Assembly (NCBI GenBank): GCA_965208125.1
Contig: OZ242320.1
Span: forward strand, 3,008,001-3,072,000
Origin: Candidatus Latescibacterota bacterium
Lineage (GTDB): Bacteria > Latescibacterota > UBA2968
Length of the DNA stretch: 64,000 bases
Direction: 5' to 3'
Shown here: piece after piece, positions 12,957-61,172 of the stretch
Layout of the letters: each line of letters begins with the position of its first letter
Position numbering within the stretch: the stretch's first letter is position 1
Position numbers and translations under genes: made by a program
The notes under the pieces: generated by a model
Told to the model about the DNA's origin: nothing
Seen by the model: only the letters and a program-made list of their open reading frames with translations
Database searches by the model: none

Positions 12957-14453
<1,497 letters not shown>

Positions 14454-14511
14454 CTATAGTAAAGTCGAGAAAGTCGATGAGGATTATTTTCCCCTTTAGA
14501 TTATAGAATAC

Positions 14512-14546
14512 AAAAATCCCCTTGACGCAGACACATCAAGGGGATT
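14512..14546 (-). terminator. Attenuator-type intrinsic terminator in the guaB leader
   Basis: 11-bp perfect stem aatccccttga/tcaaggggatt (14515-14525 / 14536-14546) followed by a T-run on the - strand. Confidence 0.8.
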
Positions 14547-14644
14547 CAAGCGGCAGGCACAGTTACACACGCCGCTCCGAGGCCTGGCGGAGGTGTAAAC
14601 CGCCGTTTTTTTCGGCAACAATAAGTGTAAAGCCTCTGGTACAT
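14546..14644 (-). CDS. Putative 32-aa leader peptide MYQRLYTYCCRKKRRFTPPPGLGAACVTVPAA
   Basis: GGAG RBS 6 nt before ATG; lies between the promoter and the terminator; stop codon overlaps the first base of the terminator stem. Confidence 0.55.
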   Translation of the reverse strand: MYQRLYTYCCRKKRRFTPPPGLGAACVTVPAA

Positions 14645-14675
14645 GATCTTCTCCAAATCGCAATTAGATTTGCCA

Positions 14676-14704
14676 AATATACCGCTTCTCTTTTGTTCTG
14701 TCAA
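14676..14704 (-). promoter_or_regulatory. Sigma70 promoter for the leader and guaB
   Basis: TTGACA-17 nt-TATATT on the - strand. Confidence 0.75.
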
Positions 14705-14943
14705 TATGTGTGAAATAGATTTTGTTCACAGGGGTCTCTGGAAAAGGGGTTGACACCGATCTTAACTGCTTATATTTTTTATTTTTATTCACACGAACTT
14801 CCAATGTTGTTGTCGGTTGATTAGCTGTTTTAAATTTTTAAGACCGGGATAATTAACATTCCTCATAACGCATTGTTGTAGAGTTGGATATACCGGGAAC
14901 TCTACTGATTTGTATTTCGTTATAATCTAAAGCAGATTTTGGC

Positions 14944-14972
14944 TTGACAGGGTTTTTTTCATTCATTAGATT
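14944..14972 (+). promoter_or_regulatory. Sigma70 promoter for the TPR-exb-tonB operon
   Basis: TTGACA-17 nt-TAGATT. Confidence 0.6.
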
Positions 14973-15107
14973 CTTCAGCCCTGCTACCTGTAATTGCATT
15001 ATTTTTTAGGAGTGAGTTATATATTGTTATTAGCAGGGAAGCGGCTTGTCTAAACTATGTGTCGTTTCCTCCAAATTTTTATTCACAATATTATGGAGAC
15101 TGGAGCC

Positions 15108-16430
15108 ATGATTTTGGATTTGAAATTCCGATCTGGTTTTTTGGTTTTGCTGTGTGGGTTTTTTGTTTTGAGTACAGCGTCATTTTGTTTTGCCGAAGAA
15201 GGCGAGACCGAGATGACACAGGCGGATTCTATCAAGAGGGCCAGCCAACATTTGGGTTGGGGTGCTCGGTATCTTAATAGTGGGCAATATGAAGACGCCG
15301 AAACACAGTTGCTCAAATCATGGGGGTTTAATCCCAAAAGAGCAGCAACGGCTCGACGCCTGGGCAAATTGTATAATGAAACAGAAAAATATGGGGACGC
15401 TATTCGATGGTATCAAAAAGCCATTGAGATTGACCCTATGACCAAGTACACCAGAGGAGTACACAAGATATTGAGCAGTATCTATGAAATACAGGAGCAG
15501 CCTGAAAAAGCCATTGGAAGTTATGAAGCATTGCTGGCATTAGACCTCGAGTTAGAAAAAATAATTAAAGAAGCGTTGTTGGCCCCCGAGTCAGAGAAAA
15601 AAATTAAAGAAGCGTTGTTGGCATTTGATCTCAAGTCAAAGGACATGAATAAACTCGAAGAGGAAAAGAATAAACTCGCGGAGGAAAGAATTCCAACTTA
15701 CCATAAGCTGGTCAGTTTGAATGTTGAAACTGAAGACTATGAGATGGCATTGGATTATGCCAAAAAGTGGGGTGAATTGGCTCCTGATGATCCCGAAGTG
15801 CGGGATATGATTGGTAAATTACATCTACAAACGGGCGGCGAGGACGAAGCTCTGGCCGAAATGGAGAAAGTGCTGGAGTTAAACCCCGATGATTATGCTA
15901 CGCTGGAAAAATTGGCGGGTATGTATGATCGAAGAGGCGATGATGATAAAGCCTTTAATGCCTTTGAAAAATTATATCAAAATGATGATTCGAGTGTTTT
16001 CTTTTTGGAAGAGACCATTAAATTGGGCAAGAGGATAGGAAAATCCAAAAGCTGGATCGTTAGTCGGCTTGAAAAATTACATGCCCTGCGGCCCGACAAT
16101 TTAGGCGTGATCGAAGAATTGGCCGAGTTGACCGGAAGCCTCAAGTGGGTCAATAAAGGACTTAAACAAGATTCACAAAATGGTAGGTATCCCTATATGA
16201 TGGGGGATCATTATTTTAGCAGGTGGGAAAATTCAAGTGGAAAACAGGATTCGATCAATGCCTTGAGATGGTACAAAAGGGCGTTGATAGATCCGATGTG
16301 GAAAGGCAATGCCACTGCAATGATCCTGACACTTGATCCTCCCCTGACCGAAGAAGAAAAGAAGCGTCGAGAATTTTTTGAAGGTAGTAAAAAGAAAAAG
16401 GAGGAGGTGGAAACAGAAGGTAAGAAGTAA
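15108..16430 (+). CDS. Exported tetratricopeptide-repeat protein
   Basis: Signal peptide; TPR helices (AIRWYQKAIEIDP, MEKVLELNPDD); internal tandem duplications; ORF track start 15057. Confidence 0.85.
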   Translation: MILDLKFRSGFLVLLCGFFVLSTASFCFAEEGETEMTQADSIKRASQHLGWGARYLNSGQYEDAETQLLKSWGFNPKRAATARRLGKLYNETEKYGDAIRWYQKAIEIDPMTKYTRGVHKILSSIYEIQEQPEKAIGSYEALLALDLELEKIIKEALLAPESEKKIKEALLAFDLKSKDMNKLEEEKNKLAEERIPTYHKLVSLNVETEDYEMALDYAKKWGELAPDDPEVRDMIGKLHLQTGGEDEALAEMEKVLELNPDDYATLEKLAGMYDRRGDDDKAFNAFEKLYQNDDSSVFFLEETIKLGKRIGKSKSWIVSRLEKLHALRPDNLGVIEELAELTGSLKWVNKGLKQDSQNGRYPYMMGDHYFSRWENSSGKQDSINALRWYKRALIDPMWKGNATAMILTLDPPLTEEEKKRREFFEGSKKKKEEVETEGKK

Positions 16431-61095: not shown

Positions 61096-61172
61096 TGGTG
61101 GGCGATACTGGATTCGAACCAGTGACCTCCTGCTTGTAAGGCAGGCGCTCTAACCAGCTGAGCTAACCGCCC
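61096..61172 (-). tRNA. trnV: tRNA-Val(TAC)
   Basis: GGGCGGTTAGCTCAGCTGG...CCTTACAAG...GGTTCGAATCC...CGCCCACCA; 77 nt with encoded CCA. Confidence 0.97.

Follow-up and report, generated by a model that had tools for sequence, protein, structure and literature searches.

A leader open reading frame that ends at a conserved terminator suggests ribosome-dependent attenuation of guaB in Latescibacterota

In the 64,000-nucleotide stretch of a Candidatus Latescibacterota genome analyzed here (the window; its host genome is a single contig of 5.75 Mb), the IMP dehydrogenase gene guaB is preceded on the minus strand by a leader in which a sigma-70-type promoter, a short open reading frame (ORF), and an intrinsic terminator follow one another, with the stop codon of the ORF touching the terminator stem. 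A leader ORF ending at a terminator in front of guaB recurs in two families of the phylum, which suggests that a purine gene is under a ribosome-dependent switch not described before. The leader is probably, if not securely, a ribosome-occlusion attenuator of the pyrE/pyrBI type, in which a ribosome at the leader stop codon would keep the terminator from folding and let RNA polymerase (RNAP) proceed into guaB; that the sensed signal is GTP is a more tentative proposal. The sequence-only reading of this region had proposed either a leader-peptide attenuator or a new RNA switch. Comparative evidence supports the attenuator half, with the ORF and its stop kept in relatives, a terminator that varies as an RNA hairpin would, and no promoter-like site between the terminator and guaB; the RNA-switch half is not supported.

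Promoter, leader ORF, and terminator upstream of guaB

The predicted promoter consists of TTGACA (14704-14699) and TATATT (14681-14676) separated by 17 nucleotides (nt), and with 11 of 12 consensus matches it is the top scorer among 25 promoter-like sites in a consensus scan of 20 kb. Both hexamers and the 17-nt spacing are identical in all 23 leaders that were compared, and transcription would start near 14669. A GGAG Shine-Dalgarno (SD) motif (14654-14651) lies 6 nt 5' of the leader ORF, which runs from ATG at 14644 to TGA at 14548-14546 (14546..14644) and is 32 codons long (MYQRLYTYCCRKKRRFTPPPGLGAACVTVPAA); the GGAG and the ATG are invariant in 17 of 17 close relatives, and the spacer between them differs in both length and sequence. 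The predicted peptide includes Cys-Cys, RKKRR (14614-14600), and PPP (14593-14585). Close to the terminator the ORF crosses a G/U-rich block (14562..14578), which reads Cys-Val in the ORF frame, has a nucleotide sequence that is kept from genus to genus, and may be an RNAP pause site or a GTP-limited stretch. The promoter, the GGAG, and the 32-codon ORF with its CC, RKKRR, and PPP are all present on the minus strand as the sequence-only reading had described them.

The terminator hairpin (14514..14547, minus strand) opens within the leader stop codon, and its core pairs CCCC (14543-14540) with GGGG (14521-14518). Its start in the stop codon and the distance of about 70 nt to guaB are confirmed by the coordinates; the hairpin scan corrects its length from the 11 bp first given to 15 pairs (with G-T pairs allowed) around a 4-nt loop. 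This makes it the second longest of 32 terminator-like hairpins in 20 kb, and other canonical terminators are also present in the window. It contributes about -23.6 kcal/mol, as judged from folds of the full leader and of the leader without the terminator, and is followed by a U-run (TTTTT, 14516-14512) and a GTAT that the variant alignment shows to be conserved (together 14505..14516). The leader signals exceed chance expectation, and the strongest argument for them is their conservation in relatives.

The guaB gene itself (12957..14444, minus strand) begins at GTG 14444 or, as is likely, at ATG 14441, and lies 70 nt past the terminator. Its product is a standard IMP dehydrogenase with a CBS pair (PF00478, E = 2.4e-164, and PF00571), and orthologues in relatives are 72 to 97% identical. 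The spacer between the terminator and guaB (14445..14513) holds the guaB SD, GAAAGGA (14454-14448); its part from 14445 to 14500 is near invariant within the genus (the AATAATCCTCATC...ACTTTCTCGAC stretch), and it folds no better than shuffled sequences (z = -0.26). A sulfatase gene lies downstream of guaB and a divergent gene for a TPR protein upstream, and the leader therefore serves guaB alone.

Distribution among Latescibacterota

Families of the phylum, as defined by GTDB, were coded f1 to f14, the window's own family being f1, the second f2, the third f4, and the fourth f3. The leader-bearing public genomes are metagenome-assembled genomes of Candidatus Latescibacterota or Latescibacteria. 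Every one of the 20 genomes of the same genus has a DNA match to the leader, with 87 to 97% identity in 16 and 66 to 76% in 4, and outside the genus the DNA match is restricted to the hairpin part. A pattern search for the hairpin found it in 27 of 30 other f1 genomes and in 3 of 22 f2 genomes, at exactly one site per genome, and in none of 115 genomes from the remaining families; the reversed pattern, run as a control, gave zero matches. Two pattern-negative f1 genomes that were checked (G022 and G023) are fragmented and are also without a guaB match. The remaining f2 genera, as well as f4, have diverged versions of the hairpin upstream of guaB. When contigs of all species were scanned, guaB was in the locus for 29 of 83 pattern matches; the other 54, from unrelated phyla and with no guaB in the locus, were taken as chance matches, as were nine loci from a metagenome pattern scan in which tblastn found no guaB.

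The leader is linked to guaB in 50 of 50 genomes in which guaB is adjacent, the sole exception being an insertion sequence (IS) insertion. At this locus (L035 900-6400, in genome G052), three transposase-like ORFs (508, 318, and 372 amino acids) split an intact leader and hairpin from guaB and place them about 4.3 kb apart. The distance from hairpin to guaB varies in other genomes: it is only 26 nt in two relatives of the window (L020 and L021), and in 7 of 15 genomes of the largest f2 genus (L144, L165, L166, and L168-L171) it is 178 to 528 nt rather than about 70. One of these, L144, carries a tandem duplication, about 45 nt long, in which the end of the leader ORF and the hairpin's 5' half are repeated.

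The linkage bears on a simple alternative, under which the leader ORF would be a small-protein gene in its own right, complete with a terminator, and guaB would be unregulated, its expression coming from constitutive leak-through or from a separate promoter. An ORF with its own promoter, SD, and terminator would suit this explanation, as would a TATAAT that follows the terminator in the window (14505-14500) and the room for a promoter where the hairpin and guaB are far apart. However, the TATAAT is unique to the window, with a 2- to 3-nt deletion there in the 16 closest relatives, and the consensus scan found no promoter-like site between the hairpin and guaB on the minus strand (14514-14444); a separate guaB promoter 3' of the terminator was among the findings that the sequence-only reading had named as evidence against itself. 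The 26-nt gap in L020 and L021 and the constant linkage to guaB also argue against a free-standing gene, as do the weak constraint on the peptide, unlike that expected of a functional small protein, and the lack of any Pfam match for it. We regard this explanation as quite improbable.

Beyond f1 and f2 the leader becomes harder to recognize. Three f4 leaders (L149, L150, and L177) have a diverged hairpin (CTCCTTGG...GTCAAGG) together with several short GC hairpins, and the mechanism controlling guaB may differ in this family. In f3, no close guaB orthologue was found in the five genomes tried (G053, G060, G107, G112, and G135); two have a 35%-identical match resembling IMP dehydrogenase, and the other three have nothing at E 1e-100 or better.

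Conservation of the leader as a probably translated ORF

Among 51 f1 and f2 genomes, 45 have an ATG-initiated ORF of 27 to 40 codons ending between -22 and +6 nt from the first C of the stem, and an SD-like motif (loosely defined) accompanies a leader ORF in 44. The stop codon is at -5, -4, or -3 in four f1 genera and one f2 genus; two other f2 genera have it at +5, within the stem, or at -9. In total, 31 genomes have the stop at -9 to +5, and 14, all from the largest f2 genus, have it at -13 to -20; the range first used for the stop (-9 to +5) missed the ORFs of that genus and was widened to -22/+6 post hoc. When the last 22 nt of each leader were held fixed and the rest was shuffled, ORFs as long as the observed one arose with p values of 0.013 to 0.21 in 8 of 10 genera and of 0.62 and 1 in the two failing genera; the combined Fisher p value over all 10, the failing genera included, is 5.6e-4, a figure in which kinship among the genera overstates their independence.

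Insertions and deletions are also consistent with a reading frame. Those inside the leader ORF are all multiples of 3, with -6 and +3 in the window's genus and ORFs of either 27, 31, or 40 codons in the largest f2 genus, and L021 compared with L020 has -1 and +1 shifts that restore the frame. A stretch reading Pro-Pro-Pro-Ile-Val-x-Gly is common to L120 and L121, with four third-position differences. The ratio of nonsynonymous to synonymous polymorphism (pN/pS) gives a clear signal only in a three-genome f1 genus (L022, L023, and L025), at 0.30 in the ORF frame versus 0.74 and 1.97 in the shifted frames.

Several observations weigh against this reading. In the window's genus pN/pS is 0.69 in the ORF frame versus 0.62 and 0.78 in the shifted frames, and in the largest f2 genus it is 0.76 versus 0.78 and 1.27; variable sites in close relatives are distributed 12/6/11 over the three codon positions, with no third-position excess. 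Neither of these codon-level tests tells coding from noncoding constraint. The entire leader, including its third positions, differs by 0.075, compared with 0.187 at 4-fold sites of guaB, and constraint is therefore partly on RNA or DNA. No ATG ORF could be assigned in the three f4 leaders, and the G/U-rich block is kept even there (in L149 and L177). In the largest f2 genus the stop lies 19 nt 5' of the hairpin and the U-run is interrupted. The relatives are not independent samples, and 6 of the 51 genomes fail the ORF test (L020, L122, L123, L146, L147, and L144). Of these, L122 and L123 form an f1 genus with a 13-codon ATG ORF and no SD, where an alternative frame stays open beyond 50 codons, with a GTG to start it in just one of the genomes, and L146 and L147 form one f2 genus. 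In L020 (genome G010) the leader stop has changed to CAA, so that the frame crosses the hairpin to a TAA overlapping the guaB ATG. The U-run of L020 is also broken, and the leader seems to have switched to translational coupling.

Taken with the ORF counts, these patterns suggest in our reading that translation up to the hairpin is selected, and that the peptide sequence probably matters little beyond a loose pattern of Arg-Arg, Pro-Pro, and Cys-Val, with RNA-level constraints overlying the ORF. Translation of the leader ORF is presumed from comparative evidence.

The terminator hairpin and the fold of the leader

Among 28 distinct hairpin variants, 12 consensus pairs are predicted, 3 of which have changes on both sides with pairing retained, and several pairs alternate among U-G, C-G, and U-A. 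Because T-G wobbles correspond to A-C mismatches on the opposite strand, the constraint is on the sense RNA and not on a DNA palindrome. By this comparative evidence the terminator is a real RNA hairpin, at which termination would be expected. In every case the 3' arm finishes with GGGG. Some lineages, the largest f2 genus among them (TTTCCTGTAT), have an interrupted U-run.

The stem, the U-run, and the GTAT are almost letter-identical across two families, and the core is also present in a third, a degree of conservation for which plain ribosome occlusion gives no explanation. It could be accounted for if a trans-acting factor reads the hairpin, the G/U-rich block, or both, and sets termination, with the leader ORF secondary or modulating. 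Such a factor could be a small ligand or an attenuation protein that binds RNA, conceivably IMP dehydrogenase itself. The near identity of these elements between families, while 4-fold sites of guaB differ by 0.19 within a single genus, favors such a factor, and so do the G/U-rich block in f4 leaders with no ATG ORF and the failure of pN/pS to set the ORF frame apart. However, the analysis identified no candidate for this factor, and the leader has no aptamer-like structure or covariation upstream of the terminator and no Rfam match. It would also be left unexplained why 45 of 51 genomes keep an SD-ATG ORF that stops at the hairpin, with in-frame insertions and deletions. We consider a factor-based mechanism rather unlikely.

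Little else in the leader appears to be structured. The full leader folds better than shuffled sequences (z = -3.5), but without the terminator it does not (z = 0.31), and the 5' arm of the terminator stays unpaired after removal of the 3' arm, with no antiterminator partner in the leader. The competing pairings pointed out by the sequence-only reading exist: GGCGG (14604-14600) can pair with CCGCC (14590-14586), GAGGCT (14636-14631) with GGCCTC (14584-14579), and two TTACAC copies (14630-14625 and 14598-14593) with a single GTGTAA (14568-14563). A consensus fold of 13 leaders from the genus predicts a TTACAC...GTGTAA/CCGC...GCGG helix that leaves the terminator untouched, and only 2 of the 36 pairs in the whole consensus fold have both-sided changes, one of them inside the terminator hairpin. 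Aligning the regions upstream of guaB, a check that the earlier reading had suggested, supported the ORF and lent almost no covariation to the competing pairings; between genera, leaders can hardly be aligned except in the hairpin and the G/U-rich block.

Searches for known RNA families gave a similar result. With Rfam 15 at gathering scores, the whole window matched only a tRNA (61099-61172), and a permissive scan of 14300-15200 gave five matches, all with E values of at least 0.92 and far below gathering, in agreement with the earlier view that the leader does not match the purine, ZTP, or ykkC riboswitch consensus. No conserved ligand-binding fold with covariation was found upstream of the terminator, and the leader seems unlike a riboswitch aptamer. 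The proposal of a new RNA switch is thus not supported, given the Rfam results, the leader fold without the terminator, the missing partner for the 5' arm, and the 2 covarying pairs among 36.

A working model for control of guaB

Given the lack of an antiterminator and a stop codon in contact with the stem, direct occlusion is the simplest working model. Transcription would initiate at the strong leader promoter and give an RNA carrying a translatable ORF of about 32 codons. If the first ribosome is at the stop codon while RNAP is making the 3' arm and the U-run, the 5' arm would be covered, the hairpin could not close, and RNAP would proceed into guaB. If the ribosome lags, or if the ORF is not translated, the hairpin would form and transcription would stop 70 nt before guaB. 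A ribosome on a stop codon covers roughly at least 10 nt past its A site, which here is the 5' arm, and the quantity sensed would be the relative speed of polymerase and ribosome.

Precedent for an effect of this kind comes from the Escherichia coli terminator tR2, where termination fell from about 90% to less than 10% when a stop codon 28 bp ahead of the terminator was brought to within 5 bp of it, and was restored by abolishing translation (PMC4824070). Because of this stop-to-terminator effect, readthrough should track how closely the first ribosome follows RNAP.

GTP as the signal that sets the relative speed is possible, though we hold it on the doubtful side. It is favored because the regulated gene is guaB, because the 45 nt leading up to the hairpin are rich in G and include a conserved G/U block, and because every 3' arm ends in GGGG. 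The G fraction is 0.34 in those 45 nt versus 0.25 farther upstream, an enrichment whose modest size weighs against the model, and TGTG is present there in 13 of 17 lineages. With GTP low, RNAP would slow down over the G/U-rich block and over the 3'-arm GGGG, allowing the ribosome to catch up, and more IMP dehydrogenase would be made; the basic and Pro-Pro stretch in the middle of the ORF would act as a built-in delay, holding the ribosome back when GTP is plentiful. Put together, this would be the first attenuator to sense GTP through transcription-translation coupling, with a basic/polyproline delay and a stop-parked ribosome that switches on IMP dehydrogenase, a combination that we advance with considerable reserve. 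In a bolder form, the near-invariant hairpin would also be read by a protein, for example IMP dehydrogenase itself, giving autoregulation.

The same occlusion anatomy could have translation itself as its input, either the speed of ribosomes through the basic and Pro-Pro stretch or initiation on the leader, with EF-P activity, Pro-tRNA, or the action of (p)ppGpp on translation GTPases as candidate signals. The level of guaB would then follow translational capacity, as feed-forward growth-rate control. Pro-Pro or Pro-Pro-Pro preceded by Arg or Lys is present in the leader ORFs of 5 of the 9 genera with an ATG leader ORF, and the consecutive-Pro-codon leader ORFs of the Salmonella mgt genes are known to sense translation speed. 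But L021 and the four other genera have lost or changed the Pro-Pro motif or never had it, strict PPP is kept in only part of the lineages, and the peptide is Pro-rich overall, so that Pro-Pro is not very improbable; moreover, lower guaB expression when GTP-dependent translation slows would not be homeostatic. Translation as the input is conceivable, but we would not expect it.

Comparison with known attenuators and riboswitches

In the pyrE (rph-pyrE) and pyrBI leaders of E. coli and Salmonella, a ribosome close behind RNAP blocks the terminator, and nucleotide-dependent pausing sets the coupling. The guaB leader resembles them in that an ORF runs to or into an intrinsic terminator before a nucleotide-biosynthesis gene, with no antiterminator hairpin. 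It differs in that guaB belongs to the purine/GMP branch and not to the pyrimidine branch, so that GTP, and not UTP, would be the nucleotide if one is involved; in having a G/U-rich block in place of U-rich pause stretches; in its leader-peptide family, with the Arg-Arg, Pro-Pro, and Cys-Val pattern; and in coming from an uncultured phylum, with an unusually conserved terminator sequence.

The trp, his, leu, and ilv attenuators likewise run from a promoter through a short leader ORF and an intrinsic terminator to the structural gene, and their outcome is decided by the position of the ribosome, as is proposed for guaB. Unlike these, the guaB leader lacks a 2:3 antiterminator, and neither arm of its terminator has another pairing partner; a run of regulatory codons for a single amino acid is missing, the only runs being KK, RR, and PPP, which are not present in all genera; and guaB is not an amino acid gene. 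The predicted outcome is also opposite to that in trp, since in the guaB leader a ribosome at the stop codon should prevent termination. Short leader ORFs, some with consecutive Pro codons, are shared with the mgtA and mgtCBR leaders of Salmonella (mgtL, mgtM, and mgtP), one of which is reported to sense ATP via transcription-translation coupling. The mgt leaders use alternative stem-loops and control genes for Mg2+ transport and virulence, whereas direct occlusion of one terminator is proposed for guaB.

A short leader peptide that is basic and carries Pro-Pro, with a stop (mostly TGA) placed for a waiting ribosome, recalls TnaC, SpeFL, SecM, and the RAPP class, although no arrest motif of these was matched in the guaB leader peptide and stalling is hypothetical; arrest-peptide sensors act on Rho access or SD exposure, and the guaB leader would act on an intrinsic terminator. 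As a cis-acting leader with a terminator before a purine gene, it is comparable to the guanine/adenine, phosphoribosyl pyrophosphate, guanosine tetraphosphate (ppGpp), ZTP, and xanthine riboswitches and to the IMPDH RNA motif, which is included in Rfam; unlike them, it matches no Rfam model at threshold and has no conserved aptamer-like fold.

Known control of guaB and of GMP synthesis is through promoters (PurR and growth-rate control), start-nucleotide sensing, and riboswitches. No description of a guaB leader-peptide attenuator was found in Rfam 15 or in full-text literature searches, as far as the listings, abstracts, and passages of the matching papers indicate, and to the same extent PMC1242208 and PMC2965389 concern subject matter other than guaB leader-peptide attenuation. 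If the proposal is true, it shows that coupling attenuators of the pyrimidine type also occur in the purine branch, provides a compact, testable candidate for GTP- or translation-dependent control, and places classical ribosome-mediated attenuation in an uncultured phylum. The leader is about 190 nt long and its promoter, SD, and terminator are of kinds recognized by E. coli, making a heterologous assay feasible.

Transcription and neighboring loci

Contigs assembled from RNA libraries (four libraries from two studies) each cross the leader, the terminator, and the guaB start (X10 record 4, X12 record 9, X17 record 10, and X18 record 20). Several of the datasets that contain the leader are labeled sponge metagenome, and of these X17 and X18 were the ones analyzed. 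This fits co-transcription of the leader with guaB, although such contigs have no proof value for starts, ends, or termination, and the libraries may contain DNA. Contig ends close to the predicted transcription start (14652, 14658, 14655, and 14701) were discounted, the contigs being uninformative on ends, and the lack of contig cover at 14722-14772 in four runs was likewise discounted as evidence.

The guaA gene of the same genome (L182 860-880, G000:C1, near 3609660) has no leader, promoter-like site, or terminator, and its start is at or overlaps the end of the preceding ORF, which by eye resembles the C terminus of L-aspartate oxidase. guaB and guaA are unlinked and differently controlled, and with guaA lacking the leader there is therefore no regulon.

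RNA contigs of relatives also cover 14817-15079, upstream of the divergent TPR-protein gene (X10 record 5, X17 record 14, and X18 records 21-22), with stated depths exceeding those of the guaB contigs; these are per-contig depths and give no expression ranking. On the plus strand, a promoter-like TTGACA-17-TATTTT (14750-14778) overlaps a GTCAAC-containing stretch (minus strand, 14712-14735) that lies upstream of the guaB promoter and is kept in many relatives, and this region may be a divergent promoter or a factor site.

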